64,000 nt of DNA from an uncultured Negativicutes bacterium (GCA_963721525.1 CAVRJL010000015.1:157890-221889), one strand, 5' to 3'. Counted from the first letter of the stretch, positions 26,036 through 61,303 are shown. The notes: generated from the letters alone by a model not told the origin. Made by a program: numbers and translations.

Positions 26036-28414
26036 TTACTTTAAACTAATTTTGTCTACAATTGCTAAAGCAACCTTCTCAGGAGACATTGGTAAAGTAT
26101 AGAAATTAATACCGATTGCATCATAAAGAGCATTAGCAATGGCCGAAGGTACAGAAATCATTGGATGCTCTCCGATACCACGAGCGCCAAACGGTCCATC
26201 TGCTTGCGGATATTCTATAATAATGGGTATAATTTCAATAGGAATATCTTTAGATGTTGGAATTTTATTATCTGTAAAAGAAGAATTCAGGAGATTTCCA
26301 TCCTTGCTAAATTTAAAAGATTCCACTAAAGCCGAACCTATTCCTTGTAGTACGCCACCTATTATTTGTCCCTCAACTAATTTTCTATTGATGGCCTGTC
26401 CCACATCAAATGCAGATACTATTTTTATAATCTTGATTTCTCCTGTATCAATATCTACTTCAATTTCTACCCCATGCGCTCCAAACGTCCAATCTAAAGC
26501 TGGAAGACCTTGTCCAGTATCAGGGTTGAGGTAGGTTAATCCTTCAGCCATATAAATACCGTGAGCAATAACTGGTCCCCCAATACCATTCCCATCCTCA
26601 TATACATACCCCATAGCTAAATCTTTATAAGAAATGCGCTTATGAGTATGTTGGATATGAAAAATAGTTCCCATGCCATAATCTAATTCTTCAATTGGAC
26701 AACGCAATATCTGAACAGCAATTTCTTTCATTTGCTTCACCATATTGTGCGCACATCTTTTTACTGCATTCCCACCCATAAATGTATATTTAGACGCAAC
26801 GGTTGACCAATCATAAGGGTGTCTATCAGTATCATTCTCCTGAATTACCTTAACTTTTTCTAACGGAATATCCAAAACTTCAGCAGCAATTTGCGCTATT
26901 GCCGTATTCGAGCCTTGTCCCATATCTACTGCTCCAACCATAACACTGACATTACCGTCCTCATCCATTTGCATAATTGCTGAAGACGAAGTATTAGGAG
27001 GCATGGCAGGGGCTTTTTGCAAACAAGCTATACCTTTACCACGAACTTTACCTGTCTTTATTGCTGCTTGTTGCTTCTCCTTCGAACGATATCCTTCCCA
27101 TTCTATTGCCTTAATTACCGCTTCAATACATTTAGCAGGCTTACCTGAATTTTCAGTAATATGCTCCCCGCTAATAGTAATCGAGTTGGCGCGCAAAATA
27201 TTTTTCATACGGAACTCGTAAGGATCCATGCTAAGCTTTTGTGCAACTAAATCCATCTGACGCTCGATAATCCAATGTGTTTCCAAATGGCCGAACCCAC
27301 GATAAGCTGTACTAAAAACTTTATTAGTATATAACGTGCGAGAATGCAATTCAATATTGGAAATATCATAAGGCCCTGCTCCTGAATAAATAGCAGCTCT
27401 ACCAACATTTACCCCATAATCAGCATAGGCTCCACTATCCCAATCATAATAAATTTCCATAGCTATAATTTTACCGTCGTTAGTGACTCCTGTTTTAATG
27501 CGACCACGCATACCAGCACGACAAGGTAATTGATTGAATTCTTCTTCACGCGTAGCGGTTAATTTAACAGGGCGTCCTTTACAAGCTTTTGAAAGAATAG
27601 CTACTAATGGTTCAAGATGGATACCTGCTTTACCACCAAACCCACCTCCTACATAAGGTACAATTATTTGAATCTCTTGCCTAGAAATTCCTAATGCCTT
27701 AGCTAAAAGCTGTCTTACGCCAAAGGGAGATTGTGTCGAAGACCAGACTTTTAATTGATTAGAATATGGGTTAGCTTGAGCAATCGCTACATGAGTTTCT
27801 ATCGGTACATGCCCCACTGGTGGTAAACTCAGCTCATTTTTTACAATCAAATTTGCTGCGATAAATCCTTTTTGTATATTCCCCTTTATAGTTTTATTCC
27901 AGCTTGCAATATTAGAATCATTCTGAGGGAAAAATACTCCTTTAATATACTCTAATTCATTAATATCTTCATGAACTAATATTTTCCCCTCTAAAGCCTC
28001 ATCAATTGTTTTTACGCTGGGTAACTTATTGTATTTAACCTTTATAAGAGCAAGTGCGCGTTCGGCAGTTTCTTCATTAACAGCTGCTACGGCTACAACC
28101 GGCTCGCCTTGGTATCTCACTTTTTCTCTCGCTAAGATTCGTTTATCTACCATATATAATCCAAGTAAATATGGAATATCTTTGCCTGTAAGAATAACCT
28201 TTACTCCTGCTAATTTTTTTGCAGCACTTATGTCTATAGATACAATTTCCGCTCTGGCATGTGGAGAATGCAAGCATTTTGCATAAAGCATTCCAGGTAA
28301 TTCCATGTCAAAAGTATAAACTGCTCTTCCTGTTACTTTTTCACAAGCATCTATTCTCAAGGGAGATTTTCCAATATATCGATATTGTTTTTCAGCCATT
28401 TCCCCTTGCCTCAC
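26036..28414 (-). CDS. Xanthine dehydrogenase/aldehyde oxidase family molybdopterin-binding large subunit
   Basis: 792-aa ORF with an a/b-hammerhead N-terminus (RIDACEKVTGRAVY), YVGGGFGGKAG and a C-terminal FGARGIGEHPM (catalytic Glu context). The start is either the GTG at 28414 or the ATG at 28399. Confidence 0.88.
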   Translation of the reverse strand: MRQGEMAEKQYRYIGKSPLRIDACEKVTGRAVYTFDMELPGMLYAKCLHSPHARAEIVSIDISAAKKLAGVKVILTGKDIPYLLGLYMVDKRILAREKVRYQGEPVVAVAAVNEETAERALALIKVKYNKLPSVKTIDEALEGKILVHEDINELEYIKGVFFPQNDSNIASWNKTIKGNIQKGFIAANLIVKNELSLPPVGHVPIETHVAIAQANPYSNQLKVWSSTQSPFGVRQLLAKALGISRQEIQIIVPYVGGGFGGKAGIHLEPLVAILSKACKGRPVKLTATREEEFNQLPCRAGMRGRIKTGVTNDGKIIAMEIYYDWDSGAYADYGVNVGRAAIYSGAGPYDISNIELHSRTLYTNKVFSTAYRGFGHLETHWIIERQMDLVAQKLSMDPYEFRMKNILRANSITISGEHITENSGKPAKCIEAVIKAIEWEGYRSKEKQQAAIKTGKVRGKGIACLQKAPAMPPNTSSSAIMQMDEDGNVSVMVGAVDMGQGSNTAIAQIAAEVLDIPLEKVKVIQENDTDRHPYDWSTVASKYTFMGGNAVKRCAHNMVKQMKEIAVQILRCPIEELDYGMGTIFHIQHTHKRISYKDLAMGYVYEDGNGIGGPVIAHGIYMAEGLTYLNPDTGQGLPALDWTFGAHGVEIEVDIDTGEIKIIKIVSAFDVGQAINRKLVEGQIIGGVLQGIGSALVESFKFSKDGNLLNSSFTDNKIPTSKDIPIEIIPIIIEYPQADGPFGARGIGEHPMISVPSAIANALYDAIGINFYTLPMSPEKVALAIVDKISLK

Positions 28415-28934
28415 TTTCCAGTTTAGCCGCTGCTAATATAGCTTTAATAATTGGGGTATATCCCGTGCATCTGCAAAAATTACCGGCAATCGCCTCTTTT
28501 ATTTCCTCAATAGTTGGATTTTGATTTCGATCCAATAAAGACCGTGCTGACATTAACATTCCCGGAGTACAAAAACCACATTGCAAAGCATCATAATTTA
28601 TAAACGCTTGTTGTAAAATTGAAAGCTTTCCATCTTTGCTTAAACCTTCTACTGTAATAATTTTTGCCTTTTCAGCCTCAACCGCTAAAACCATACACGA
28701 ATTTACCGTTTTACCATTCATACTAACAGTACAAGCTCCACATTCTCCTTCTCCGCAACCTTCTTTAGTCCCAAAAAGTTTCAGCGTATTACGTAAAAAA
28801 CTCAACAAAGTCATTGTCGGGTCAATCATTGCTTCCACCTGTTCACCATTTACAGAACAACTAAGTTTAACGCGTGGAAAACTAGAATCAATATATATAA
28901 AACAATTCTGTTTATCAGTATAATTTTCGCACAT
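28392..28934 (-). CDS. (2Fe-2S)-binding small subunit of the XDH-family enzyme
   Basis: GCGEGECGACTV and QCGFCTPGM cluster motifs. The ATG at 28934 is preferred because a GAGG Shine-Dalgarno lies 8 nt upstream and it sits just after the FAD-subunit stop. The track ORF extends to 28973. Confidence 0.88.
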   Translation of the reverse strand: MCENYTDKQNCFIYIDSSFPRVKLSCSVNGEQVEAMIDPTMTLLSFLRNTLKLFGTKEGCGEGECGACTVSMNGKTVNSCMVLAVEAEKAKIITVEGLSKDGKLSILQQAFINYDALQCGFCTPGMLMSARSLLDRNQNPTIEEIKEAIAGNFCRCTGYTPIIKAILAAAKLESEARGNG

Positions 28935-28944
28935 TTTAGAGACC

Positions 28945-29790
28945 TCACATATCCAATAACTTAGAGATGCCACGCTTTACCAATATTCCTGCAATATGAA
29001 GTCGATATTGAACACAGGAGCGCACATCAGAAATAGGATTGATTTGTTTACGTACTTCATCGCATGCTAAATTAGCAAGTTCATGTGTTAATGGCTGAGA
29101 ACTAAGGAATTTTTCCAATTTAGTAAGACGTATTGGAGTCGGAGCTATTGCTGCCATAGCTATTAAGAAGAATTTTTTTGATACAAATCTTATCGCTACT
29201 CCAACAATCGTTAAATCATGTCCTTTTATTCGTGATTGCTTAGAATATACGCTATTATCATCAATATCTACATCAGGTAACGATATGCCAATCACTAGTT
29301 CTCCAGGCAGGAGAACTGTTTTTTTTACACCAATAAAAAAATCTTTAATATTCACAATACGTTTGCATTGATAACCAGCAATATGTATTTTTGCTTCGTA
29401 TATTAAAAGTGCAGGAGCCAAATCAGCTCCAGGAGATGCATTACATATATTTCCTACTACAGTAGCACGGTTACGTAACTGGTAAGATGCTAATAAATTC
29501 GCTGCCTGTATTAAAGAGCTGTACTTGTTTTGAATAAAAACGGATTGAGCTACCTGATTAACAGTAACTGCAGCCCCAATAAACAAGCCTTCTGATGGTT
29601 TATATTCTAATAATTGAGCTTCAGGTATTGATTTAATATCTAAAATATGATTAGGAGTTTCTAGATTATGGCGTAATCTTACCATTAAATCAGTACCCCC
29701 AGCAAGAATTTTAGTACCATTATTTTTCTTTAAATAAATTAAAGCTTCTTCAAGATAATACGGTCTTATATAGTTGAACTTACTTAACAC
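28945..29790 (-). CDS. FAD-binding subunit of the XDH-family enzyme (CoxM/XdhB-like)
   Basis: FNYIRPYYLEEALIYL...ILAGGTDLMVRL is the FAD_binding_5 pattern. The GTG at 29790 is preceded by GGGAGGG. The track ORF starts at a TTG at 29808. Confidence 0.85.
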   Translation of the reverse strand: MLSKFNYIRPYYLEEALIYLKKNNGTKILAGGTDLMVRLRHNLETPNHILDIKSIPEAQLLEYKPSEGLFIGAAVTVNQVAQSVFIQNKYSSLIQAANLLASYQLRNRATVVGNICNASPGADLAPALLIYEAKIHIAGYQCKRIVNIKDFFIGVKKTVLLPGELVIGISLPDVDIDDNSVYSKQSRIKGHDLTIVGVAIRFVSKKFFLIAMAAIAPTPIRLTKLEKFLSSQPLTHELANLACDEVRKQINPISDVRSCVQYRLHIAGILVKRGISKLLDM

Positions 29791-29892
29791 AGTGCCTATC
29801 CCTCCCAACCTTTTTGCCGTAAGGCAATGATGTATAAATACCCTATTTGCTTAATTAAAATTTTTAAAGCCTAATGAGAGATAATTTCGTTT

Positions 29893-30792
29893 TTATTTAC
29901 ACTTACTTTTAATAATAATTTTACTATGTTCAAAAGGACATTTTCCAGGTCTCAGGATACCACTGACAGCTTGAAGATTTCGGTCTTCTACATGGTCAAA
30001 AAGCATAGGGGATTTAGAGCCATATGTAATATATTTCAACGGTTCGGCAGACAATTTTGCTGAAACTATTTCTTCAGTTCCTCTAGCTTGAGCTAAACGT
30101 TGTGCGATTGGACTTACTATCATACTATGCCCCGCAAAATAATTATTACTTGCATCAGGACCCACTGCATTAGTTGCTATAACATACACGTGATTATCGT
30201 AGGCTCGAGCACGACATGTTAGTTCCCAAATATCAAAGCTTCGCATAAAAGCCGAAGGACGAGTAATTATTTCTGCTCCTTTAAGAGTAAGCTTTCTAAC
30301 AAGCTCTGGAAAATCTCCATCATAACAAATTATCATACCGATTTTACCTAGGGCAGTATCAAACACCGGCGTTTCTATTCCAGGAGTTGTCCAACCTCCA
30401 CCTTCAATTCCTTCTGTAGAAAAAGGATGAGTTTTTCGATAAACACCAATAATTTTACCGTCAGGCCCTATTAATACTGAGGAATTATATATTATGGGAC
30501 TTGTATCTCCTTTTTCGTACATTGGCCAAACTACATGAACTTCTAATTGACGTGCAACTTTGCCTACTTTACGAGTAATATCTCCTGGAATGACATCAGC
30601 TAATTGCTCATATATATTCTCTACGGGAATATTAGGGCTAAATCCAGTAGTCACATTCTCTGGGAAAACTACTAATTCCGCTCCATGTTCGCTAACTGCT
30701 CTGTTAAGCCATTCAAGTGCTTTAGCAGTATTATACTGTACATCATTCGGCTTAACTGCAATTTGCACAGAGCAAGCTACAAAATCTTTCAC
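29893..30792 (-). CDS. Carbon-nitrogen hydrolase (nitrilase superfamily; N-carbamoyl-amidase-like)
   Basis: 299-aa ORF with Glu-Lys-Cys triad contexts: VVFPENV, VYRKTHPF, MIICYDGDFPE. Confidence 0.85.
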   Translation of the reverse strand: MKDFVACSVQIAVKPNDVQYNTAKALEWLNRAVSEHGAELVVFPENVTTGFSPNIPVENIYEQLADVIPGDITRKVGKVARQLEVHVVWPMYEKGDTSPIIYNSSVLIGPDGKIIGVYRKTHPFSTEGIEGGGWTTPGIETPVFDTALGKIGMIICYDGDFPELVRKLTLKGAEIITRPSAFMRSFDIWELTCRARAYDNHVYVIATNAVGPDASNNYFAGHSMIVSPIAQRLAQARGTEEIVSAKLSAEPLKYITYGSKSPMLFDHVEDRNLQAVSGILRPGKCPFEHSKIIIKSKCK

Positions 30793-30875
30793 TATTTATT
30801 GTCTCCTTATTTCATAATAGAAATATTAACAAAGAAATACCGTATGTTTTTATTATATTTCGTTCTAAAGTTAAA

Positions 30876-31661
30876 TTATTCTTCATCATAAGCTACTATA
30901 CGGCAAATAGAAGATTCACCCCCTTCAAATCGCCAAGGATAGCATCCTATAATTAAATGTTTATTAAGAATTTGAGTAATTTCACCGCCGATGTTTTCAG
31001 CATGAATAATGTCATGTGGAAAAAGATCTATATGCATTAACTGATAATGATCATTAGGAAAGATATCAGAAATACTCTTATTATATTTTGCTTGAAAATA
31101 TGATTCGCACTCAACAGCCTGTTTCGGACACCAATCTCGAATTTTAGTATTCATAGGATGATCTGCAGATCCACAATCTACTCCAATCAATTTTATTTCC
31201 ATATCACGGCACCATTTAGCAAATTCACGAGTAGGACCAGGATGTTTAACCATATAACGAACCTCGTCAGCTCCTGGTTGATCCCAAGCATATTTAGAAT
31301 ATCCTGTATGAATAATCAATATGTCTCCTTTATGGACTTCTACACGGTCCGTAATATCTTTCGATGTATATATACCATAATCTTCAGCTATATCGCTCAA
31401 ATCAACTACAACCCCGAGACCTATAAGGTCTGAAAGAGGTATACTGGCAATATCACGACCATGAGTACAAAAATGTAAAGATCCATCTAAATGAGTACCT
31501 ACATGGTTAGAAGTTGTAATCAATTGACCATTAGCTCCATTAGAACTAAGCCTCTTAAAAAATTTAATTTGTAAAGGCTCATAAGTAGGCCATGGCGGAG
31601 TAAGATGACTTAATTTCTGTGTAAGATCATACATTTTTACTTTGTTCCAATTTTTTACCAT
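30876..31661 (-). CDS. Cyclase-family metal-dependent hydrolase (kynurenine formamidase/isatin hydrolase-like)
   Basis: 261-aa ORF whose NHVGTHLDGSLHF matches the HxGTHxDxPxH-type cyclase-family motif. Confidence 0.8.
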   Translation of the reverse strand: MVKNWNKVKMYDLTQKLSHLTPPWPTYEPLQIKFFKRLSSNGANGQLITTSNHVGTHLDGSLHFCTHGRDIASIPLSDLIGLGVVVDLSDIAEDYGIYTSKDITDRVEVHKGDILIIHTGYSKYAWDQPGADEVRYMVKHPGPTREFAKWCRDMEIKLIGVDCGSADHPMNTKIRDWCPKQAVECESYFQAKYNKSISDIFPNDHYQLMHIDLFPHDIIHAENIGGEITQILNKHLIIGCYPWRFEGGESSICRIVAYDEE

Positions 31662-31685
31662 TTCATTAGCTCCTTATTTGATAAT

Positions 31686-33101
31686 CTATTTAATACGCTT
31701 TGCTAAAGCTAAAAGCGCTTTTTCAAAACATTCGGCAGGGGGATTTACTATGCCAGCTCCTACTTGTCCAATTCCAGAATCTTTATGAGCCATACCAGTA
31801 TTGATAACTGGCAAAATCCCACTAGCAATAACTTTACGTACGTCAATACCTGTCGATGCACCACGAAAATTTAAATTAGGATTAGCATAATTTTGATTTT
31901 CTCCTAAAGTAATTTCAGCCATTCTTTCCGAATAAGCTAAGGCATCGTCCACAGAGCCCCCAACAAATTGTACAATAGCCGGAGCTCCGCCCATGGCAAA
32001 ACCACCAATACCTAAAGTTTCAGTGATAGCGCTATCTCCAATATCTGGATTAGCATCTTTTATTGTATAACCGGGAAACATAAGTCCTTGAATCATTTGT
32101 GCTGGTCCAGTGAACCACGTATTACCCGGACAACCACTTACACGAATACCAAATTCCACTCCATTTCGACACATAGTAGTCACAACAGTGCTATTTTCAA
32201 TACCATGCGCAGCATCTAATGCCGATTTGCAAGCAGGCATAGATAAATTCAAGAAAAAATGGTCATTAGAATTGATAAATTCAACAACCCGAATAATGGC
32301 TTGCAAATCAGCATTGACTCGTAATAGAGAAGGCGTAATACTCCTAACAAACAGGCTTGTTCCTGCTTTATTGCGATTATGACACTCATCCCCCATTTGT
32401 ACTGCTTGAGCAATAAGACTACGTATATCAATTCCTCCGGATAGTTTAATAGCTTCTTTTACAATCGGACCGAACTCAGTTTCAATCCATTTTAGTTTAT
32501 TAATAACTTCTTGATCATAAGCACCAAAACGTAATACTTTTCCAAGCCCTTCGTTAAATGAACAATATGCGAAGTTACCGTGGGTTTTATTCTCAATTAC
32601 CTGTACCGGCATTGATGCTGACAAAATACCTGCCATTGGACCTACTGCATTATGTTCATGGCAAGGAGAAAATTTTATTTTTCCCGAAGCAGCTAAATTG
32701 CTAGCCTCATTTTCATTATTAGCCAACCCTTCATAAATAAGCGCACCAACAATAGCTCCCTTCATAGGTCCAGCCATTTTTCTCCAACTAATTGGAGGAC
32801 CAGCGTGTAAAATGGTATATTTAGTCATTCCAGGGATAATATTAATAGCTGTGTCTATATCTACTAAAAATGGATGAGCCTTTATAATAACATCTACAGC
32901 TTTGGCATTAGCAACATTAATTTTATCAATATTATTTAATTTATCCAATACTTTAATAAGTTCGGGATTTCCTCCGGCAGGCGGCTTCCAATCTAACTGG
33001 ATAGCATTTATTCCTTGCAATTTAAGTTCTGCTGTAAAAGTTTCAGCACCAATATTTAAAACCGTAATTTCATTTTTAAATAAATTATCTATTGTATTCA
33101 T
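31686..33101 (-). CDS. DUF1116 family protein (YlbE-like)
   Basis: 471-aa ORF. A 4-nt ATGA overlap with the upstream FdrA gene, and the position between FdrA and the rest of the cluster, mirror E. coli fdrA-ylbE-ylbF. Confidence 0.7.
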   Translation of the reverse strand: MNTIDNLFKNEITVLNIGAETFTAELKLQGINAIQLDWKPPAGGNPELIKVLDKLNNIDKINVANAKAVDVIIKAHPFLVDIDTAINIIPGMTKYTILHAGPPISWRKMAGPMKGAIVGALIYEGLANNENEASNLAASGKIKFSPCHEHNAVGPMAGILSASMPVQVIENKTHGNFAYCSFNEGLGKVLRFGAYDQEVINKLKWIETEFGPIVKEAIKLSGGIDIRSLIAQAVQMGDECHNRNKAGTSLFVRSITPSLLRVNADLQAIIRVVEFINSNDHFFLNLSMPACKSALDAAHGIENSTVVTTMCRNGVEFGIRVSGCPGNTWFTGPAQMIQGLMFPGYTIKDANPDIGDSAITETLGIGGFAMGGAPAIVQFVGGSVDDALAYSERMAEITLGENQNYANPNLNFRGASTGIDVRKVIASGILPVINTGMAHKDSGIGQVGAGIVNPPAECFEKALLALAKRIK

Positions 33102-34657
33102 ATATACATTTCCTCCCGTTTTTTAACAATTAAACTTGCTAAACGAGCGGCCTGCGCATTACTTTTTGCCAATAATACTCCTGCTGAAGCTAATTTTTGC
33201 ATCTGTATATTGCTTCCTTGTATGTCTTGTTCAGTACCGCACACATAACCAATTATTTCTAAATTTCGTCCTGATTCTATTGCAATGCGCTTAGCTTCTA
33301 TAATAGTCGGCAACGTACTCCCAACCGGATCAGGGTGGGAACCATATCCAAGCACAAAATCCATTAAAATAACTGCTGTTTCTGGATCAGCCGCTTCTTT
33401 TAAAATACGAGGTAACCGTAAAGAAGGTTCAATCATAGGATGTGGTTTCCCTTTGGTAAATATATCATCTCCTAAATCAATAAAAGTATTCCCTTTACTA
33501 ATATTATGAGGATCATCTAAAATTTCTTCTGTGTTTTTAGTAATATTAGAATAAATTTTTAGTCCGTGGTCTTTAACTATATTTATAGCTTCAACACATA
33601 AAGTACCACCACAGAATAGACCACGAATATATTTTTGACTGATTAAAAATTTTGTATTTGTAGGTATGGCTAAATCATTAATTTTATTCTCATAGGTTAG
33701 TATATTTTCCTTTTTACAAATAGCTACAGCTGTGTGAGCTGTGGCTTCCAAAGTCTTACAAAAATATACTCCTGTTTTTTCCATTTGGACATCTTTATAA
33801 TTAAGAAAGCAAATCACAATAGGTTTCGATATATTTTTCAGTTTATCAAATATTTTATTTGTTACTTTTTTGGATGGTGGCTTAGAAATTAAAACAATAA
33901 TTTCCGTATTGTTGTGTCGCTGTAATGCATCTAAAGAGTCCAGCATAGTAATACCACCAACAGCTTCACTTAAATCTCTTCCACCAGTGCCTATAACCTG
34001 AGAAATACCTTCGCCTAAACGATCAATTAACACTGAAACTTCCTGAGTACCTGTTCCCGATGCTCCGATTATACCAATATTTCCTGCTTTAACTACGTTG
34101 GCAAAACATAATCCAAAATTATTTATTATAGCTGTTCCGCAATCCGGGCCCATTATTAAAAGTCCTTGTTTGTGAGCAAATTTTTTTAAGGCAATTTCTT
34201 CTTTTATACTTACGTTATCACTAAATATCATAACATGTAAATTGTTTTTTAAAGCTTGCATAGCTTCGCGAGCTGCATATTGTCCAGGAACTGAGATAAT
34301 AGCTAAATTAAGATTTGAGACCATTTTTATTGCAGATTCTATTGATGAAGGATTAATTTGTTTACCGTTTTTGCGAAAAGACTGCTTTTTAGTTAAAGTT
34401 TCCTCTACTGTTTGAATAGCTCCGATACAAATAGATTCGTTTTTTGCTCTAACTGCAATAATTAAATCATTGGTTCCGGCTATATCAATCTCTTTATTAT
34501 AAATTTCTATACGTTGTAACAACTCCTTATTCATATCAGTTGCCATAACTACAACAGCGTCATTTACTCCTTCTATAGCAGCAATCTTACCGGACAATGC
34601 CATTAAAGTTACAGAATCATGATATGAATCTTTTTTTATTAAGATTTTTAAATTCAA
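33098..34657 (-). CDS. fdrA: FdrA family protein (succinyl-CoA-synthetase-alpha-like, CoA-ligase fold)
   Basis: 519-aa ORF. The N-terminal KKDSYHDSVTLMALS and GIIGASGTGTQE (CoA-ligase loop) are typical of FdrA. Confidence 0.8.
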   Translation of the reverse strand: MNLKILIKKDSYHDSVTLMALSGKIAAIEGVNDAVVVMATDMNKELLQRIEIYNKEIDIAGTNDLIIAVRAKNESICIGAIQTVEETLTKKQSFRKNGKQINPSSIESAIKMVSNLNLAIISVPGQYAAREAMQALKNNLHVMIFSDNVSIKEEIALKKFAHKQGLLIMGPDCGTAIINNFGLCFANVVKAGNIGIIGASGTGTQEVSVLIDRLGEGISQVIGTGGRDLSEAVGGITMLDSLDALQRHNNTEIIVLISKPPSKKVTNKIFDKLKNISKPIVICFLNYKDVQMEKTGVYFCKTLEATAHTAVAICKKENILTYENKINDLAIPTNTKFLISQKYIRGLFCGGTLCVEAINIVKDHGLKIYSNITKNTEEILDDPHNISKGNTFIDLGDDIFTKGKPHPMIEPSLRLPRILKEAADPETAVILMDFVLGYGSHPDPVGSTLPTIIEAKRIAIESGRNLEIIGYVCGTEQDIQGSNIQMQKLASAGVLLAKSNAQAARLASLIVKKREEMYI

Positions 34658-34678
34658 ATTCTTTCCCTCCTGATTCGA

Positions 34679-35443
34679 TTATTTAGTCAATTCTACACCA
34701 AGTTCCAAACCGCTAATTAAACCAATTGCTAAGTCTGTTCCTGATAATGAACCAATTTTAAGTATTTTCAAGATAGCATTTTTTAGCGGTTGTGACGATA
34801 TAGCTGCACGTAATAAAGCGATTATATTTTCTCGGGTCTTTCCTTGCGCAGCTAATATAATCATTTCTTGACTAACAGCCGTAGTTTGCTTTCGAGCAAT
34901 AGTTGCTAAATCGAATCCTAAATTCTTATACTCCTCATCAAAAGGACTGTTGCACATATGAAAAATTGTAATTATCCCAGCACAAAAGTCATCTCCCGAT
35001 GGAGTAAGACCACCACCTAATCCAATTAATTTAGATCCCCAAAGATGCGCATCCTGAAAATTTTTTATATATAAGGCCTTTAAAAATTTTTGTGAATTTT
35101 TCGCTAAATGTTCAGTATAAATATTATTCGCTTTTATTTTAGTATTATTAGAATGTGATTTTAATAATCCGCCTCCCCTGCCATAATTTACTATATATTT
35201 TCGCAAAATATGTAAATTATTTTTTAACAACAACATATCCTGTTTCTTTGGGAAAGCAGGTAATACCGATTCCCATACTAATACGCTGTTTAATTTAATG
35301 TTCATATTTCCAACATATAAAACTCCAGAAATAGCCGTTACTATATCTCCAAGTTTAATTTTCATATCTGTAAAAGAAAATTTCGCATCTACTCGTAAAG
35401 TACGAGGAGCATTATCCTGCTGTTGTGAAGCAATGCTATACAT
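34679..35443 (-). CDS. DUF2877 family protein (YlbF-like)
   Basis: 254-aa ORF from the ATG at 35443. The frame stays open for 43 more codons upstream, up to a TGA that overlaps an AGGTGA Shine-Dalgarno-like site, with no ATG/GTG/TTG in between. The family call rests mainly on its position beside FdrA/DUF1116. Confidence 0.6.
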   Translation of the reverse strand: MYSIASQQQDNAPRTLRVDAKFSFTDMKIKLGDIVTAISGVLYVGNMNIKLNSVLVWESVLPAFPKKQDMLLLKNNLHILRKYIVNYGRGGGLLKSHSNNTKIKANNIYTEHLAKNSQKFLKALYIKNFQDAHLWGSKLIGLGGGLTPSGDDFCAGIITIFHMCNSPFDEEYKNLGFDLATIARKQTTAVSQEMIILAAQGKTRENIIALLRAAISSQPLKNAILKILKIGSLSGTDLAIGLISGLELGVELTK

Positions 35444-35640
35444 TTTACCATCACTACAATTAATATTGATAACTTGACGAAATATGCTATGTATTTGTCC
35501 AAAAAATACCGAATGTAAAATCAGCTCTACAAAAGCAATATCTCCACTAAGAATCTTTACTTGCGAAATATATCACCTACTTTGTATATATTTGAAATAT
35601 ATACTTCTATAAATTAACTTAATTTTCTCATGGCCTATTT

Positions 35641-36909
35641 TTATTTCACACTCTTTTCTACAACATCATTCATTAAAGAACACATTTCCAACACTTTAAA
35701 AGTTATACTAACTATGATAGAAACAATAGTAGCTAAAACCATTCCTTTCATTTCTACTGAACCAATGTTAATATGAGCACCACTAATACCGACAATAAAA
35801 ACAACCGAGGTTAATATTAAATTTTTTACATTATTATAGTCTACTTTAGATTCTACTAGTATACGAATACCAGACGCGGCAATAACACCAAATAATAACA
35901 TTGAAATACCGCCCATGACAGAAATGGGAATGCTTTGAATCACAGCAGCTAATTTCCCAACAAAAGACAAAGTAATAGCCATAATGGCAGATCCTGCAAT
36001 AACATATACGCTATATACCTTAGTAATAGCCATAACGCCAATATTTTCTCCATAAGTAGTATTTGGAGTAGAACCAAACAAACCAGAAATCAATGTGGAT
36101 ACACCATTACCTAGTAATGAGCGATGTAAACCAGGATCTTTAAAAAGGTCTTTTCCAACAATATTACCAGTTACCATCAAATGTCCCATATGTTCAGCGA
36201 TGACTACTAAAGTAGCCGGTATAATTATTATAATGGCATTAAGTTGAAAGGATGGTACGTAAAAAGTAGGGATAGCAAATAAAGCAGCTTTGGCTATACC
36301 ACTCATGTCTATAATTCCAAGAAAAAGAGCTAAAATATAACCGCTAAATACTCCAATAAGAATAGAAATAATAGATAAAAACCCACGAAAAACAACTGAA
36401 CCCAGAATAGTAACTACTAAAGTAAATAGCGATACTGTTACTATTTTAGGATCAAAGCTTTTAGCTGTAAATCCTGCCATGTTTGCCGCTACAGGAGCTA
36501 ATTCTAAACCAATAAGAGCAACAATCGCTCCCATAGCAGCTGGTGGGAATATTATATCAAGCCACTTCACCCCAACAACTCCAATTACTAAGGCCGCTAA
36601 AATAAATATTAATCCAACTACAATAAAACCTCCAAGAGCTGCCTTATATCCATATTGAGATAAAACGACGATTACTGGAGATACAAAAGCAAAGCTCGAG
36701 CCAAGATAACCTGGTATGCGTCCTTTGCTAATAAAGATATAAAGCAATGTTCCTATCCCATTGAATAATAATACAGTAGCAGGATTTACTTTAAATAGGA
36801 TAGGAACAAGAACAGTTGCTCCAAACATAGCAAATAAATGCTGTAGGCTAAGAGGAATACATTCTAACAAAGATGGGCGTTCATGAACATCGATAACTCG
36901 CTTGACCAT
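35641..36909 (-). CDS. NCS2/NAT-family nucleobase permease, uracil (UraA/PyrP)-type
   Basis: 422-aa multi-pass ORF with QHLFAMFGATVLVP and the NAT signature ENIGVMAITK. Glu in the first position matches uracil carriers; xanthine/urate carriers have Gln there. Confidence 0.85.
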   Translation of the reverse strand: MVKRVIDVHERPSLLECIPLSLQHLFAMFGATVLVPILFKVNPATVLLFNGIGTLLYIFISKGRIPGYLGSSFAFVSPVIVVLSQYGYKAALGGFIVVGLIFILAALVIGVVGVKWLDIIFPPAAMGAIVALIGLELAPVAANMAGFTAKSFDPKIVTVSLFTLVVTILGSVVFRGFLSIISILIGVFSGYILALFLGIIDMSGIAKAALFAIPTFYVPSFQLNAIIIIIPATLVVIAEHMGHLMVTGNIVGKDLFKDPGLHRSLLGNGVSTLISGLFGSTPNTTYGENIGVMAITKVYSVYVIAGSAIMAITLSFVGKLAAVIQSIPISVMGGISMLLFGVIAASGIRILVESKVDYNNVKNLILTSVVFIVGISGAHINIGSVEMKGMVLATIVSIIVSITFKVLEMCSLMNDVVEKSVK

Positions 36910-37214
36910 TTTTTCACCATATTTCCATTTACTTAATTCGCTTTCAGTTTAATATATTAATTTACTACTAGTATTAAACTTAAATATAAGCGGGTAATCT
37001 TTTATTAGTAATTTTATTTAAAAATCGTTATATATTGCAACTTATAACTTTATAATATTTTCAATCAACAACCAGCTGCTTCCTGACCATAAGTACAACC
37101 AATAAAATAATTTATTTAAATAGTATAGTCTAGTCTCATTCATAATACTTATTAAGGCTCAAAAACAACATTAATTATTTAAAAAATATCCTTTTTACTT
37201 ATTCTCTCATATTA

Positions 37215-37304
37215 TGGCGGAGAGAGTGGGATTTGAACCCACGAGAGCTTTCGTTCTACACGATTTCGAGTCGTGCGCCTTTAACCAGACTCGGCCACCT
37301 CTCC
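37215..37304 (-). tRNA. tRNA-Ser (CGA anticodon), CCA encoded
   Basis: Minus strand reads ggagaggtggccgagtctggttaaaggcgcacgactCGAaatcgtgtagaacgaaagctctcgtgggttcaaatcccactctctccgcca. It has the long variable arm of a class II tRNA. Confidence 0.92.
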
Positions 37305-51187: not shown

Positions 51188-51665
51188 ATTTCATTACTAA
51201 TCCTCGAATTATATGAGCAAAATCATCACAATGATCAAGAGTGTTTTCTAGCAGTTCGTATATTTCTTTCCACTTTATTATTTCTATGGGGTTTTGGCAT
51301 TCAATGAATAAATTAGCTAACTCTCGATTGTAAATTCTATCTCCTTCATCTTCTAGTTCAATAACATTATAACATTGCTCTAAAATTTGTTCTCTATTTG
51401 TTTTCATATCCTGTAGAAACTTAAAAATTAAAAATAATTCGTCAGCACAAGATGCTAATAAAGTACACATTTCTAAAGCACCTGGAATAGTTCTTGATAT
51501 TTTAAATACAACCATCCTATCAACTATTTCTTTAATCATTCCAACAAAATTTTTAAGTTTTTTTATGATTAAAAAAATCTCTTCCCTATCAATCGGAGTA
51601 ATAAAGCTTTGATTTAATTTGTCAATAACTGCCTCATGCAGTTCAATTATTGAATAAGCATAGTT
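51180..51665 (-). CDS. DUF47 / PhoU-like phosphate-transport accessory protein, 5'-truncated at the block A/B junction
   Basis: The track ORF starts at the internal Met at 51539, but the frame continues upstream as NYAYSIIELHEAVIDKLNQSFITPIDREEIFLIIKKL (the DUF47 ITPxDRED motif). It runs into foreign, higher-GC sequence at ~51,660 with no start codon. It overlaps pit by 8 nt, as is typical. Confidence 0.75.
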   Translation of the reverse strand, partial: NYAYSIIELHEAVIDKLNQSFITPIDREEIFLIIKKLKNFVGMIKEIVDRMVVFKISRTIPGALEMCTLLASCADELFLIFKFLQDMKTNREQILEQCYNVIELEDEGDRIYNRELANLFIECQNPIEIIKWKEIYELLENTLDHCDDFAHIIRGLVMKYA

Positions 51666-52772
51666 GGTGTACTGGGTTAGTGGGGAAGACGTGTTCGTAA
51701 AGAGTTGATGGAGCTGGGAGATTTTGTTGACCTCGTTATAGGCCCGGACGAATACCGCAAGCTTCCCGCACTTATAGAAGCAGCGGACGATGGTGAAAAG
51801 GGAGTCGCCGTGAAACTTTCCCGTGTCGAAAAGTACGACGACATTATCCCTTTCCGCACGATGGAATAAGTGCCTGGGTTTCTATTATGCGCGGGTGCGA
51901 TAAATTTTGTACCATACTGTGTCATCCCTGCACACACCAGCCGCGAGCAAAGCCAATCGCTGGCTTCTATTATTGTATCGGAAATAAAAACTTCGCGCCG
52001 TGACTTTAAGGAAGTAACACTGCTTGGTCAGAACGTGAACTCATACAGCGATGGTGCATTCGATTTTGCAGATTTGCTGAATACCATTGCCGAGGTTGAT
52101 AAGAACATACGTGTAAGGTTCATGACTTCCCATCCCACGGATATATCAGCGAAGCTGATTACAGCCATTGCATCGCGGGACAACATTTGTAATTACCTAC
52201 ACTTACCTGTGCAATCAGGTTCAAATAGAATTTTAGAATTGATGAACAGAACATACACAAGAGAGCAGTACCTTGCCCTTGTCCACAAAATCAAAAAAGT
52301 TATTCCCGATATAAGTCTCTCTACTGATATTATTTCAGGCTTTCCGACTGAAACGGAAGATGACCACAAAAAGACATTAGATTTATTGCGAGAAATAGAA
52401 TTTGACGGCGCCTATACATTCAAATATTCTCCGCGAGAGAATACGAAAGCCTGGCATATGGGTGATGACGTCCCCGAAGAAGAAAAGAATCGCCGGTTAA
52501 GCGAAATCATTGATCTTCAGCGTCCTATTTCACTCAGTCGCAACTCAACGATGATTGGTACCATAGTAGAAGTTCTTGTTGAAGGGCTCAGTAAAAAATC
52601 CGTACATGATTTTTGTGGCAGAACCGATACAAATAAAATGGTTATCTTTCCCAAAAACGGCGATGCCATTGGTGATTACATCGGCGTCCATATTGAACGT
52701 GCAAATTCGGCAACATTGTTTGGTTCCAGAGCCGGACACCTGCTTCCTCAATTTGCAATGCTCACCACATAG
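51666..52772 (+). pseudogene. miaB: tRNA-i6A37 methylthiotransferase MiaB fragment (N-terminus missing; in-frame stop and frameshift)
   Basis: Begins mid-gene with GVLG*WGRRVRKEL...DLVIGPDEYRKLP. The radical-SAM motif is split across frames (SAWVSIMRGCDKFCT, then YCVIP). The rest is intact through the TRAM domain (GTIVEVLVEGLSKKS...GRTD). Confidence 0.8.
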
Positions 52773-52785
52773 GAAGATTAATGCC

Positions 52786-53478
52786 ATGAAAACGTTTATC
52801 AAAACGATTATTCGTACGATTTATATTTTCGTTTTATTCACAGGAACGCTTTCCGCTCAAACAAACTCGGGGGAGCCGGATATTCGGCGTCGTCTCGAAA
52901 TGATTGAGAAGGGTCAAGCGGAAGCAGTTCGGGCTGAGCTTCCATCGCTCATGACGAACTATCAGAACAATCCCGGCGTCATGTACTTACAGGCAGTGCT
53001 CACTGCAGATGGCGCAGAAGCGGCAAAATTGTACCAAAATATTGTCGATAATTTTCCAAAATGTGAATGGGGCGATGATGCGCTCTACAAGCTTTATCAA
53101 TATTATTATTCTATTGGCCTGTACAAAACAGCCGATCAAAAACTGACACAATTAAAAGAAGAATATCCATTTTCTGCATATGCGGCGAAAAAAATCCGGC
53201 AGTGGAAGAAAGCAAGGAGCGAAAGAAAAACCGACAATGGTGAACCGAAAAGGAAACGTGCCAAAGTTTGCAACAAACTCACCGTAGAAGTCGGTGAGTT
53301 TTCGACGCTTCAAAACGCCGGCGAGTTGAAAGCAAAATTTGAAAAAGAGGGCTATCAATCAAACATCTTTACCATTGTCAGTAATGGTAAAAAACTTTAC
53401 AAAGTTTGGGTGGGTGAATTCCAGACTTATAAGGACGCGACAAAATTCACTGCGGAAATTAAAAGCAAATCAATTTAG
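52786..53478 (+). CDS. Secreted SPOR-domain protein
   Basis: 230 aa starting from the ATG at 52786, which is preceded by AGGAAG. It has a signal peptide (MKTFIKTIIRTIYIFVLFTGTLSAQ) and a C-terminal SPOR-like repeat (VEVGEFSTLQNAGELKAKFEKEGYQSNIF...YKVWVGEFQTYKDATKF). Confidence 0.6.
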   Translation: MKTFIKTIIRTIYIFVLFTGTLSAQTNSGEPDIRRRLEMIEKGQAEAVRAELPSLMTNYQNNPGVMYLQAVLTADGAEAAKLYQNIVDNFPKCEWGDDALYKLYQYYYSIGLYKTADQKLTQLKEEYPFSAYAAKKIRQWKKARSERKTDNGEPKRKRAKVCNKLTVEVGEFSTLQNAGELKAKFEKEGYQSNIFTIVSNGKKLYKVWVGEFQTYKDATKFTAEIKSKSI

Positions 53479-53503
53479 CATCGATGGTTGTCTCACGTTT
53501 TTA

Positions 53504-54624
53504 ATGGACCGAGAAGAATTCCAGCAAATATACGGCATTGTTGGGAAATCGCCGGAGATACAGGAAATTGTTGATGTCGTTCAGCAAGTAGCACCGACCG
53601 ACATTACTGTGCTTATTTCTGGAGAGAGTGGGACGGGTAAGGAAATTATTGCCAAGGCGATTCACGGTGCAAGCAAGCGATCTCAACACGCTCTCGTTTC
53701 AGTTAACTGCGGAGCGATTCCGGAAGGTCTTATTGAAAGCGAGCTATTCGGACATGAAAAAGGCGCGTTTACCAGCGTTGCGGATATGCGCCATGGATAT
53801 TTTGAGATTGCAGATGGTGGAACCATTCTCCTCGATGAAATCGGCGATATGCCGCTCTCGACACAAGTGAAGTTATTGCGCGTGCTGGAAAGCGGAGAGT
53901 ATATCAGAGTCGGCTCATCGTCGGCACGCAAGACAGATGTGCGTGTCATCGCCGCGACGAACAAACTGCTGGATTATGAAGTTCAACAAAAACATTTTCG
54001 TCCTGATTTATATTTTCGATTACGCTCGGTTAATATTCATTTACCACCGCTCCGGAACAGGAAGGAAGATATTCCTGCGCTTGTTGAGCAATTTGTGAAA
54101 GAGATCTCGGACAAGAACAAGATTCAGTTTGGCGGATTTACCGATGATGCAACCGAACTATTGATGAATTATAGCTGGCCGGGAAACATCCGTGAACTGC
54201 GAAATGCAATCGAAAGTATGCTTATTCTAGAAAATGGCAAGCGCCTTGATGGGCGACGACGTAAGAAAATATCTTCGTGAGCAGCCCTCGGTGCTGACGG
54301 AACGAAATCTGCCTGTTGTTTCAAACAAAACCGTTGAGCAAGCAGAACGTGAGCTCATTTATCGTGCCTTGGTGGATCTTAAATCCAATATTATTGAGAT
54401 GAAAGAGCTGTTGACCGGGCGGATCTCTCATACGAGTGAATTCGATGGTAATAACACACAACCACACAACGGCAATGGTATTCTGACTATGGATGAAATG
54501 GAACGACGGATGATTTCCAGCTCACTGAATCGAAACAAAGGGAATCGTGGTCTCGCCGCAAGAGAATTGAACATTCAGCGAGCGGACGCTGTACCGAAAA
54601 ATAAAAGATTTTGGACTTCAATGA
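53504..54624 (+). pseudogene. Sigma-54-dependent AAA+ transcriptional activator without an N-terminal sensory/receiver domain; 2 frameshifts
   Basis: Walker A is GESGTGKE, Walker B is ILLDEIGDM, and WPGNIRELRN is present. The sigma-54 contact motif reads GAFTSV rather than GAFTGA. The frame shifts near 54,240-54,280 and again near 54,575. The Fis-type HTH (SERTLYRKIKDFGLQ*) is readable only in a third frame. Confidence 0.75.
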
Positions 54625-54668
54625 AAAACAAAAAAATGCAAAACAGAAACTGTAAAACGTTAAGTAGA

Positions 54669-55186
54669 ATGTCGAATCCAGGGAATCTTTTTTTCATTTC
54701 ATTTTATTTTTCATTTTTCGTTGTACCTGTCGGATGTTCCTTATTCCTTCAAAGGTGGATCGGTACCGCCTCATTTAAAAACAATTGCAATTCCTGTTGT
54801 GGAAGATGTCAGCCCATATGGTGATCCGACACTTCGGACGACATTCACAAATCAATTAGTGGCTTTATTTACCGGCGATAATACACTTCAACTGACAGAT
54901 CGTAATCCAGCAATTCCTATGCTCGAAGGTGTGATAACAGATGTGACAGATGTGCCCTTGGTGTGCAGGGCGGTGAACAGGTCGCCCAGCGTCGTATCAC
55001 GGTTACCGTACAGAATCGACGTTCAGGATTTGAAACTTCGCAAGAAAATATGGGAAAAAAGTTTTACGCAGCTGGGGAGATTATCCTTCGGGTGGCGGTT
55101 TTGCACAGCGCGCAGCGAAGGAACTACAGAGGCGGTCAGAAAAAATAACAGAAGATATTCTCAACGAAACAGTCGCAGGATGGTAA
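54669..55186 (+). pseudogene. LptE-like lipoprotein, multiple frameshifts (tentative)
   Basis: It has a lipoprotein-type signal ending VPVGC, then YSFKGGSVPPHLKTIAIPVVEDVS...LEGVITDV..., and ends ITEDILNETVAGW*. The pieces lie in at least 3 frames. The call rests on its position after miaB and the sigma-54 activator, as in Bacteroidota. Confidence 0.4.
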
Positions 55187-55187
55187 T

Positions 55188-56240
55188 ATGACACTCGCAA
55201 TATTTTTATTTAGACAGGAAATTATAGAAAATCCAGCATTCTCGGATTTCGTAATGTATCTCTATTTTATTTCGTTGCTCATTCTCTTCGCATTCGGTGC
55301 ACACGGATTTGTGATGGTGTATCATTTATGAAACAGCGCGGCACTGCAAGCGTTCAACCGCCTCTGAAAGAGACACCCGTCGTGACGATACAGCTCCCGT
55401 TGTTCAACGAACTGTATGTTGCCGATCGCTGATCAGATGCAGTATGCGCGCTTGATTATCCCAAAGATAAATTGGAAGTGCAGGTGCTAGATGATTCGAC
55501 AGATACAGACGGTTAATTAGTGGAGACAGCTGTGATCGCGCTATCGTGCTCTCGGATATGACATAAAACATTTATGTCGATCATCTCGTTCTGGATATAA
55601 AGCGGGTGCCCTGAAATACGGACTCGAGACCGCGCGCGGTGAATTCATAGCGATCTTCGATGCAGACTTTATCCCCAATACGGATTTTCTTGAAAAAACT
55701 ATTCCTCATTTTTTCACCGACCCAAAAATCGGCGATCGTACAAACACGCTGGGAACATATAAACCACGAATTTCAATGCTTACCCGTGCACAGGCCTTTG
55801 CGCTTGACGGACACTTTGTTGTGGAACAAGATGTGCGCAACAAAGCGGGATTCTTCATTCAGTTTAATGGTACGGGAGGGGTTTGGCGCAAGGCAACCAT
55901 TCTTGATGCCGGAAATTGGCAATCAGATACATTGACGGAAGATTTAGATCTAAGTTACCGCGCACAACTTCGGGGGTGAAGGTTCAAATATCTCACCGAT
56001 GTCACCTCACCGGCTGAATTGCCTGCGGAAGTAAATGCTTTGAAGTCCCAACAATTTCGCTGGACGAAGGGAGCTATCGAAACTGCCACGCAAAATGATT
56101 CCAGAAGTATGGAAATCAAACATACCACTGCGTATTAAAATTCACTCAACATTTCATTTAACAAGTAATATTGTTTATCCATTTATTGTATTCGCTGGAA
56201 TATTGAACAATAGGTTCCAGCTTATTTTCATAAAACAACA
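55188..56240 (+). pseudogene. Family-2 processive beta-glycosyltransferase (cellulose-synthase-like), several stops/frameshifts, 3' end cut by a junction
   Basis: GT2 motifs are readable across frames: AGALKYGL, FIAIFDADF, FNGTGGVWRK, TEDLDLSYR and [11 protein letters not shown] (QxxRW). At least 5 frame disruptions occur between 55,330 and 56,100. Confidence 0.7.
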
Positions 56241-57825: not shown

Positions 57826-58507
57826 CAGTTCTTTTAATGAATGTACGATATAGGTGGGCCGGACTGTCGGGGGGATATGCAGGTGATCAATATAAACCTG
57901 GTCCATGCCCACATTCATTGCCCCAATAATATCCGCTTCCACATTGTCCCCGAGCATAATGCTTTCCTCTTTTAACGCACCGGTTTTCTGGAGCGCATAT
58001 TCAAAAATTTCCTTCTGTGGCTTTAGACTGTTGGAACTCTCCGAGGTGATTACTTCCCTAAAAAAATAATCCGAGCCCGGAACTTGCCAGTTTGTTATGC
58101 TGGGTTTTTTCAAAACCATTGGTTATCAGGTGAAGCTGGTAATTCTTTTGGGTCAGGTATTCCAGTATTTCTTTGGCATAGGGGAATAATATTTTTCGGG
58201 TAGGGAGGGATTCCAGGAAATACACCCCCATTTCCCTGGCCAGTGGTTCACTTCCTATTTTAAAATCCAGCAATGTGAGCCACATTCTTTTCCATCGGAG
58301 TTCCTCTGCCTTGATAAAACCATTTCGGTACCGATCCCAGAGTCTTTCATTGTGAGCCAGGTAATTTTTATGAAACCGGTCAAAATCATCCACCCCTTTT
58401 GACTGTAACTGCATCGTGTGATACAATTCCAGCAGGGTCTGCCTGCTGTTGGCTTCAAAATCCCAAAGCGTATGGTCCAAATCAAAAAAAAGGTGACGGT
58501 ATTTCAT
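57826..58507 (-). pseudogene. HAD-superfamily hydrolase (YjjG-like nucleotidase family), 1 frameshift, extreme 3' end cut by a junction
   Basis: Starts at the ATG at 58507: MKYRHLFFDLDHTLWDF (DxDxT motif)...LITNGFE. The frame shifts near 58,060-58,085, then continues REVITSESSNSLKPQKEIFEYAL...MLGDNVEADIIGAMNVGMDQVY. Confidence 0.75.
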
Positions 58508-61289: not shown

Positions 61290-61303
61290 TCATGGCCTGA
61301 GGA

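Follow-up and report, generated by a model that had tools for sequence, protein, structure and literature searches.

The DNA analysed here, a 64,000-nucleotide stretch (hereafter the window) from an uncultured Negativicutes bacterium (GCA_963721525.1 CAVRJL010000015.1:157890-221889), carries on its minus strand, at positions 26036-36909, nine co-directional genes that apparently represent a widespread, uncharacterised variant of oxidative pyrimidine catabolism. In transcription order, the operon begins with an NCS2/NAT nucleobase:cation symporter of the UraA type (35641..36909; Pfam Xan_ur_permease, E 1.9e-93), a proposed importer of uracil (or thymine). The next three genes encode the subunits of an AllFGH-type carbamoyltransferase, all above the cutoffs of their models: an AllH-like subunit (formerly DUF2877; 34679..35443; PF11392, 83 bits versus a cutoff of 25), an AllF/FdrA-like subunit with a succinyl-CoA-synthetase-alpha-like fold (33098..34657; Pfam CoA_binding and Ligase_CoA; NCBIfam FdrA subfamily NF004760, 512 bits versus 433), and an AllG-like subunit (formerly DUF1116; 31686..33101; PF06545, E 2.7e-100). 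Two hydrolases follow, namely CYC, a cyclase-family metal-dependent hydrolase (30876..31661; PF04199, E 4.4e-35, 121 bits versus a cutoff of 23) proposed to open the barbiturate ring as an amidohydrolase, and a nitrilase-superfamily C-N hydrolase (29893..30792; Pfam CN_hydrolase, E 2.2e-51, 175 bits), a proposed malonamate amidase that may also cleave ureidomalonate. The last three genes form a molybdenum hydroxylase trio of the xanthine dehydrogenase (XDH) family: an FAD-binding subunit (28945..29808; Pfam FAD_binding_5 and CO_deh_flav_C; under all XdhB equivalog cutoffs), a 2x[2Fe-2S] subunit (28392..28973; Pfam Fer2 and Fer2_2), whose domain begins at about residue 35 and whose true start is probably downstream of the mechanically called GTG, and a molybdopterin-binding catalytic subunit (26036..28414; Pfam Ald_Xan_dh_C and MoCoBD_1/2), the proposed uracil/thymine dehydrogenase (C6 hydroxylase).

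A scan of the window for open reading frames (ORFs) placed all nine genes, intact, at the coordinates given in a first-pass annotation made from the sequence alone. The spacers in transcription order are 197, 21, -4, 24, 83, 84, -29 and -23 nt; the -4 junction is the ATGA reported in that annotation, with the AllG start over the AllF stop, and the last two overlaps depend on mechanically called ORF starts and may be shorter. Pfam and NCBIfam agree with the annotated identities of all nine proteins, and every motif quoted was found in its gene: ENIGVMAITK (residue 288) in the permease, CGEGECGACTV (73) and CGFCTPG (132) in the 2Fe-2S subunit, GGGFGGK (256) and GIGEHPM (746) in the catalytic subunit, HVGTHLDGSLH (53) in CYC, and the Glu (FPEN), Lys (YRKTH) and Cys (ICYDG) triad contexts in the C-N hydrolase. 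The genes are as long as their closest orthologues, from Sporomusa rhizae, with no truncation apparent, and the operon is therefore taken to be intact.

For a survey of its conservation, one genome per species was scanned for CYC relatives, which occur in at least 572 species genomes, and the best 80 loci of these were kept; together with others, 85 loci were fetched, 49 of them with full 10-kb flanks on both sides. All nine window proteins were compared with these loci by tblastn, and all locus ORFs were clustered. CYC homologues form 2900 clusters (90% identity) at E<=1e-10, and the top 120 of these, 67-87% identical to CYC, include Erysipelotrichaceae, Moorella, Thermotogota, Omnitrophota, Bathyarchaeia, Ignavibacteriales and Deltaproteobacteria. 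Among the full-flank loci, AllG is present in 48/49, AllF in 46/49, the molybdenum subunit in 39/49 and an NCS2 permease in 37/49, with AllF, AllG and the molybdenum subunit together in 38/49. AllH heads the order AllH-AllF-AllG-CYC in 50 of the 80 survey loci and in 39 of the 49 full-flank loci, and this order is maintained in Negativicutes, Thermotogota, Synergistota, Spirochaetes and Eisenbacteria. The cluster is also found in cultured organisms, namely Moorella thermoacetica, Sporomusa rhizae (DSM 16652), Alkaliphilus metalliredigens (QYMF) and Clostridium magnum (DSM 2767). The first-pass annotation had allowed that the genes might not be conserved together elsewhere; they are. An adjacency of unrelated genes by chance, to which the 197-nt gap 3' of the permease and the lack of a regulator gene in the window might point, is excluded because the same set, in the same order, recurs in dozens of phylogenetically distant genomes, and its probability is negligible.

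The permease speaks for a pyrimidine as the imported compound. Its score for the NCBIfam uracil-permease equivalog NF007995 is 661 bits (cutoff 477), the linked permease of Moorella also exceeds the uracil-permease equivalog cutoff, and among the specific models uracil-permease is best for seven of another nine linked permeases that were scanned. Position one of the NAT motif, occupied by Glu in uracil and other pyrimidine carriers (Glu290 of UraA) and by Gln in xanthine and urate carriers, holds Glu in 42 of the 46 linked permeases. Further pyrimidine genes are linked to the cluster: 5 loci have a cytosine-deaminase-like amidohydrolase within it, and 4 have a PreA-like dihydropyrimidine dehydrogenase subunit. 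In two Elusimicrobia loci (L044:9965-11602 and L030:5294-6893), a uridine-phosphorylase-like gene lies directly 3' of CYC (277-278 bits versus an equivalog cutoff of 280.3), and this pair ties CYC itself, independently, to pyrimidine nucleosides; neither AllFGH nor the hydroxylase is found near it. Between the permease and the PucR-type regulator of the Sporomusa rhizae cluster lies a methyl-accepting chemotaxis protein (L007:2089-4140; dCache_1 match below threshold), which may be a chemoreceptor for the pathway substrate.

The molybdenum hydroxylase is compatible with this input. Its catalytic subunit falls under every NCBIfam equivalog cutoff (best XdhA, 538 versus 780 bits), and the nearest solved structure is the alpha subunit of 4-hydroxybenzoyl-CoA reductase, not XDH. 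A fragment of human xanthine oxidoreductase, checked against residues 792-1285 of PDB 2ckj, was aligned with 53 cluster-linked molybdenum subunits, with bovine numbering. The catalytic base Glu1261 (Glu749 in the window, within GIGEHPM) is invariant (53/53), and Arg912 and Phe914 (window Arg372 and Phe374) are kept. Of the purine-binding residues, Glu802 is replaced by Ala or Ser (window Ala263) and Arg880 by Ala, Ser, Thr, Gly or Val, never Arg (window Ala340), while the position of Phe1009 is Pro throughout (window Pro469). With the catalytic Glu invariant and the Glu802 and Arg880 equivalents replaced, the enzyme is, as far as its residues tell, one that has kept the hydroxylation chemistry without the purine pocket. 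The first-pass annotation had considered that these positions might betray an already known substrate and pathway; they exclude xanthine instead. In uracil, C6 is the only C-H next to a ring nitrogen, and hydroxylation there gives barbiturate, which is the reaction of uracil/thymine dehydrogenase. The trio shares with XdhABC, PucCDE and the selenium-dependent XDHs its three FAD, 2Fe-2S and molybdenum cofactor (Moco) subunits and the catalytic Glu; unlike xanthine dehydrogenases and purine hydroxylases, it misses their equivalog cutoffs and has Ala at both purine-binding positions.

The same logic might nevertheless serve another N-heterocycle, such as a purine (xanthine, hypoxanthine), a modified pyrimidine, orotate or an azapyrimidine, with the hydroxylase, ring hydrolase and carbamoyltransferase working on a different ureide. 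PucR-type regulators in 33 of the 80 survey loci (34 of all 85 fetched), the two linked permeases for which pbuX is the best specific model, and an adenine-deaminase-like gene adjoining a CYC-XDH unit in a Thermotogota metagenome-assembled genome (MAG) give such a reading some weight, as does the presence in 10 loci of YqeB and YqeC, which mark selenium-dependent hydroxylases of the purine type. We consider it rather unlikely, however: the Glu802 and Arg880 equivalents are absent from 53/53 molybdenum subunits, all xanthine dehydrogenase cutoffs are missed, the permeases mostly bear the uracil-type Glu, hydrolysis of xanthine would yield an aryl-urea rather than an acyl-urea, no imidazole-handling genes are present, and the malonate and (methyl)malonyl-CoA decarboxylases described below suit the C3 backbone of a pyrimidine. 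The Moco maturation genes XdhC, MobA, YqeB and YqeC occur in about 10 loci. YqeB, which acts in selenium-dependent Moco maturation (one copy scanned, 385 versus 220 bits), lies beside the hydroxylase in L017, L032, L036, L052, L053, L065, L067, L075, L079 and L081, usually with XdhC and a MobA-like gene and often with YqeC, and some versions of the hydroxylase may thus be selenium-dependent; no YqeB, YqeC, XdhC or MobA-like gene was found in the window.

The three subunits downstream of the permease have a characterised counterpart. In 2024, AllFGH was identified as the oxamic transcarbamylase of E. coli, which converts oxalurate and phosphate to oxamate and carbamoyl phosphate (PMC11326118); the first-pass annotation, which had linked fdrA-ylbE-ylbF to this carbamoyl transfer, was correct, and Pfam now names two of the families AllG and AllH. 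Window AllF is 39% identical to E. coli FdrA, AllG 49% to YlbE, and AllH 29% to YlbF over its C-terminal 109 residues. The likeness extends to the proposed reaction, phosphorolysis of an N-acyl-urea to carbamoyl phosphate and an amide, and to the adjoining carbamate kinase, which lies inside 12 related clusters (e.g. AllH-AllF-AllG-CYC-carbamate kinase-C-N hydrolase in Sporomusa rhizae; the one copy scanned is above the arcC equivalog cutoff). The order of genes differs (H-F-G rather than F-G-H-K), allB, allC, allD and allE are absent, and the proposed substrate has one more CH2. Window AllG begins with ~50 residues (32930-33101) that align to positions 507-555, the C-terminal tail, of the E. 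coli-type FdrA model, and a separate 56-residue ORF stands between AllF and AllG in Alkaliphilus metalliredigens (L002:8477-8647), which shows that the boundary between these two genes has moved in evolution.

Related modules also occur in other company. In Tissierella carlieri (L090:670-13648), genes for PucR, the cyanuric acid amidohydrolase AtzD (560 versus 360 bits), an amidohydrolase and a permease precede AllH-AllF-AllG and carbamate kinase; in Enterococcus casseliflavus (L088:1949-12360) and Virgibacillus halodenitrificans (L089:3998-12362), a BiuH-like isochorismatase-type hydrolase lies ahead of the same four genes. Like the CYC-linked clusters, they place a portable AllHFG module, with or without carbamate kinase, behind a ureide-opening hydrolase, in the company of PucR and an NCS2 permease; unlike those clusters, they have neither molybdenum hydroxylase nor CYC, the opener being cyanuric acid amidohydrolase or a BiuH-like enzyme, and their substrates are likely to be s-triazine or biuret-type compounds. 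This suggests that the AllFGH family is a general module for acyl-urea or biuret phosphorolysis. The identity of AllG did not separate the contexts when tried as a substrate marker, the copies from cyanurate/biuret contexts being 62-66% identical to window AllG and the CYC-linked copies 48-85%. The AtzD and BiuH-like loci also carry two unannotated proteins of about 500 residues, and the Enterococcus casseliflavus copy lies among transposase and resolvase genes. A carbamoyltransferase gene beside CYC in L045 proved to encode a true ornithine carbamoyltransferase and is no evidence for the pathway.

CYC is 66-89% identical to its orthologues across many phyla. It has the metal motif HxGTHxDxxxH and scores far under the arylformamidase equivalog TIGR03035 (49 versus 223 bits). 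In Foldseek, its predicted model matches cyclase-family proteins only (isatin hydrolase, TM 0.56; kynurenine formamidase), at 15-19% identity to solved members. Within the family, isatin hydrolase cleaves a five-membered lactam, that of isatin, and dihydrophloroglucinol cyclohydrolase a six-membered 1,3-dicarbonyl ring (PMC10470551). Opening of barbiturate by CYC would have a precedent in these two reactions. CYC shares the PF04199 fold and metal motif with both enzymes (PMC6117287, PMC10470551); unlike them, it belongs to a separate, very strongly conserved orthologue group, and its proposed substrate is a cyclic ureide. A ring-opening amidohydrolase ahead of AllHFG and carbamate kinase recurs, as the AtzD of Tissierella carlieri shows.

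The C-N hydrolase meets no NCBIfam equivalog cutoff. Against PDB entries it scores 98-110 bits with Nit/omega-amidases and aliphatic amidases and 52-69 bits with carbamoylases. It is present in 22 related loci. Clusters without it have either a CoA-transferase alone or, in 20 loci (L001, L014, L015, L022, L028, L031, L033, L037-L039, L041, L043, L047, L048, L060, L066, L068, L072, L077 and L085), a thiolase-containing module of three genes that stands in place of both C-N hydrolase and CoA-transferase (e.g. L001:18100-20305). This module consists of a strongly conserved protein of 215-230 residues (56-89% identity among copies), a second protein that is thiolase-like and a third with a DUF35/ChsH2 OB fold. 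The first of these has no Pfam, NCBIfam or PDB match, profile search included, and by eye bears a GNAT-like motif, RGLRIGAQLF.

Breakdown of a C6-oxidised pyrimidine ring leaves a C3 dicarboxylate and a carbamoyl group, and malonate is the likely product here because malonate-handling genes sit in sister clusters. In two Firmicutes MAGs (L020 and L024), genes for a MadB-like membrane subunit and for malonate decarboxylase alpha (in L020, 884 bits versus 789 for the mdcA equivalog; PF16957, E 2e-266) come directly after AllH-AllF-AllG-CYC, with more decarboxylase subunits behind them. Sporomusa rhizae and Carboxydothermus islandicus encode, between the C-N hydrolase and hydroxylase genes, all parts of a sodium-pumping biotin decarboxylase of the methylmalonyl/malonyl-CoA type (MmdA-like carboxyltransferase, gamma subunit, biotin carrier and beta subunit). 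A family-III dicarboxylate-type CoA-transferase is present in 29 loci. Taken together, the context in related loci points to a pyrimidine entering and malonate and carbamoyl phosphate leaving.

AllHFG could instead act on oxalurate, as in E. coli, with a parabanate-like cyclic ureide as its source, the hydrolases converting oxamate to oxalate and the CoA-transferase activating the latter. Oxalurate is the one substrate proven for AllFGH (PMC11326118), and the linked CoA-transferase is most like the acetyl-CoA:oxalate CoA-transferase YfdE. We regard this as very unlikely, in that tblastn found AllD (ureidoglycolate dehydrogenase), AllC (allantoate amidohydrolase), AllE (ureidoglycine aminohydrolase; E. 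coli queries for these three) and oxalyl-CoA decarboxylase neither in the window nor in the 85 related loci, no hydroxylase route is known from an imported nucleobase to parabanate, malonate and Mmd-type decarboxylases would make no sense for a C2 product, and the gene order is H-F-G instead of F-G-H-K.

Our reading, held as somewhat better than an even bet and with every substrate deduced from sequence and context, is that the products of the operon run the oxidative (barbiturate) pyrimidine route in a form that needs no oxygen. The UraA-type permease would import uracil, possibly also thymine, and the molybdenum hydroxylase would oxidise uracil at C6 to barbiturate, passing two electrons via 2Fe-2S and FAD to a cellular acceptor. 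CYC, in place of the unrelated barbiturase, would then open barbiturate to ureidomalonate (3-oxo-3-ureidopropanoate), from which AllH-AllF-AllG would form, with phosphate, malonamate and carbamoyl phosphate. This step would ask little new of AllHFG, since ureidomalonate (H2N-CO-NH-CO-CH2-COOH) differs from oxalurate (H2N-CO-NH-CO-COOH) by a single CH2 group. Carbamoyl phosphate would be turned into ATP, CO2 and NH3 by a carbamate kinase whose gene lies elsewhere in the genome here and inside the cluster in relatives, and the C-N hydrolase would release malonate and NH3 from malonamate. In relatives, malonate may be activated by the CoA-transferase and decarboxylated by malonate decarboxylase or by the sodium-pumping biotin enzyme. 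The order of steps in the first-pass annotation (uptake, molybdenum-dependent ring hydroxylation, hydrolytic opening, carbamoyl transfer) is the one favoured by the comparative evidence, and its guess of a pyrimidine substrate has gained from the permease Glu, the molybdenum-subunit residues and the linked pyrimidine genes.

The assignment of ring opening to CYC and of the amidase step to the C-N hydrolase may have to be exchanged. CYC would then be the malonamidase and the C-N hydrolase a decarbamoylase or ureidomalonase acting in parallel to AllHFG, with the ring opened by another protein or by AllH. CYC is always beside AllG while the C-N hydrolase is confined to 22 loci, CYC and C-N hydrolase genes are paired without AllFGH in Atribacterota and Elusimicrobiota, and the nitrilase superfamily includes many carbamoylases, all of which would fit such an exchange. 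Those pairs can also be explained if the C-N hydrolase cleaves ureidomalonate directly, as the same malonyl-enzyme intermediate would allow. An exchange of roles seems unlikely to us, given that CYC is tightly linked to the hydroxylase without AllFGH in Thermotogota (CYC-FAD-FeS-Mo), that the cyclase-family enzymes characterised so far act by opening rings or cleaving formamides (PMC10470551), that Tissierella has the ring-opening AtzD with AllHFG and carbamate kinase where other clusters have CYC, and that the C-N hydrolase scores closer to amidases and omega-amidases than to carbamoylases.

A number of observations weigh against an oxidative pyrimidine route as drawn here. Roughly two thirds of the related clusters have no C-N hydrolase to take up malonamate, and explicit malonate or (methyl)malonyl-CoA decarboxylase genes are found in 6 loci only. 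The CoA-transferase is nearest to the oxalate enzyme YfdE (40-45% identity; best NCBIfam score 383 bits, under the cutoff of 522), and the PucR-type regulators and the two pbuX-like permeases lend the clusters a purine flavour. The substrate of AllHFG cannot be read from its sequence, because AllG copies from cyanurate/biuret contexts are as close to window AllG as many CYC-linked ones, and the AlphaFold model of CYC is poor at residues 18-62, metal motif included. The two hydrolases could, as noted, have exchanged roles, and CYC could be the amidase. Finally, tblastn found no carbamate kinase in the window, and no malonate-using genes were found there either; since both are missing from the window, the operon may serve this organism mainly for nitrogen release or scavenging rather than for energy.

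The oxidative pyrimidine pathway of aerobic actinobacteria was reportedly described by Hayaishi and Kornberg in 1952 and by Soong, Ogawa and Shimizu in 2001-2002. It consists of uracil/thymine dehydrogenase (EC 1.17.99.4), barbiturase (EC 3.5.2.1) and ureidomalonase (EC 3.5.1.95), which yields urea and malonate. The route proposed here has the same intermediates (uracil, barbiturate, ureidomalonate and malonate) and likewise begins with a molybdenum-iron-sulfur flavoprotein. In contrast to the actinobacterial pathway, none of the nine proteins matches the AtzD/TrzD barbiturase family (PF09663), CYC standing in its place; the ureido group would leave as carbamoyl phosphate through AllHFG rather than as urea through ureidomalonase; an extra amidase step from malonamate to malonate is needed; and the hosts are strict anaerobes, in relatives of which the route is linked to conservation of energy as ATP and a sodium gradient. 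The statement of the first-pass annotation that the gene set matches no known route thus holds at the level of genes, whereas chemically the set is best taken as the known oxidative (barbiturate) route, in which every step but the first would be carried out by non-homologous enzymes. Four routes of pyrimidine breakdown are recognised, namely reductive Pyd, oxidative, Rut and URC (PMC12507026). Pfam and NCBIfam found among the nine proteins no signatures of Pyd (dihydropyrimidinase/PydA), Rut (RutA/B), URC (Urc1), the ygeW-ygfK cluster (YgfK, SsnA, YgeW, YgeX) or the xanthinase route (xanthine amidohydrolase), the last absence resting on domain content only. By its gene content the operon is therefore none of these, nor is it an allantoin regulon or a xanthine dehydrogenase operon. 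A full-text literature search, with papers in subscription journals outside its coverage, found no published description of the cluster and no paper assigning it to a pathway, an outcome that the first-pass annotation had left open.

To our knowledge, the reductive pyrimidine route is the only one known in strict anaerobes, and uracil/thymine dehydrogenase is an enzyme without assigned sequences. There is perhaps an even chance that the operon and its relatives constitute an energy-conserving route of uracil/thymine fermentation, present in more than 10 phyla of anaerobes and hitherto undescribed. The odds seem equally balanced that three new activities are involved: a cyclase-family barbiturase, a ureidomalonate:phosphate carbamoyltransferase and a nitrilase-superfamily malonamidase. 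If the proposal is right, anaerobes run oxidative pyrimidine chemistry without oxygen and recover the ureido group as ATP instead of losing it as urea, each uracil yielding reducing equivalents and, by way of carbamate kinase, one ATP, to which malonyl-CoA decarboxylation would add a sodium gradient in some hosts. Sequences would then be assigned to uracil/thymine dehydrogenase activity, a cyclic ureide would join the substrates of the cyclase family, and AllFGH would be a general acyl-urea phosphorylase family, a portable module employed after different ureide openers (oxalurate, cyanurate/biuret-type and barbiturate-type). The carriers of the cluster that are in culture and genetically or biochemically accessible make the hypothesis directly testable. 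It is tempting to speculate that a uracil C6-hydroxylase of anaerobes might act on fluoropyrimidine drugs.

The operon lies among housekeeping genes, with tadA and tRNA-Ser(cga) (37215-37304) upstream and a convergent acyltransferase gene, then rpsO and pnp, downstream. An AT-rich leader of 305 nt (36910..37214) between the tRNA gene and the permease start is the likely promoter region; it has one sigma-70-like match (37040-37011), and promoter-like matches were no commoner, indeed fewer, than in shuffled sequences. The AT-rich 197-nt gap between the permease and allH genes (35444-35640), where all other junctions are of 84 nt or less, has weak promoter-consensus matches, and an internal promoter or regulatory site there is possible. 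No regulator gene was found in the window, no riboswitch or leader element by an Rfam scan of the operon region, and no terminator by a scan after the last operon gene. The tRNA-Ser neighbour and a GC content of 35%, versus 27-28% in the flanks, suggested a recent genomic island. This was not supported: GC at third positions shows a small rise only (0.19-0.25 versus 0.15-0.20), pnp itself has 34% GC, and a search on either side of the operon gave no repeat of at least 14 nt derived from the tRNA. The host, a low-GC relative of the Negativicutes, has a polynucleotide phosphorylase (PNPase, encoded by pnp) that is only 66-72% identical to its best named matches, from Thermosinus, Sporomusa, Lucifera and Pelosinus. 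Compared with Sporomusa rhizae, the operon proteins reach 50-88% identity and PNPase 67%, which had also pointed to an island; the high similarity of the operon looks like the result of strong constraint or old transfer, not of a recent island.

A change of a different kind is seen at the far end of the window (51500-64000), where no rRNA was found. GC content there steps sharply from about 28% to 40-61%, and the region holds truncated or frame-overlapping pieces of genes, among them radical-SAM/TRAM, sigma-54 activator, TonB-dependent receptor and BatD fragments, together with a HAD hydrolase and an OmpR-type regulator. The region has the look of a mosaic, made of foreign or misassembled DNA and attached to the low-GC chromosome.

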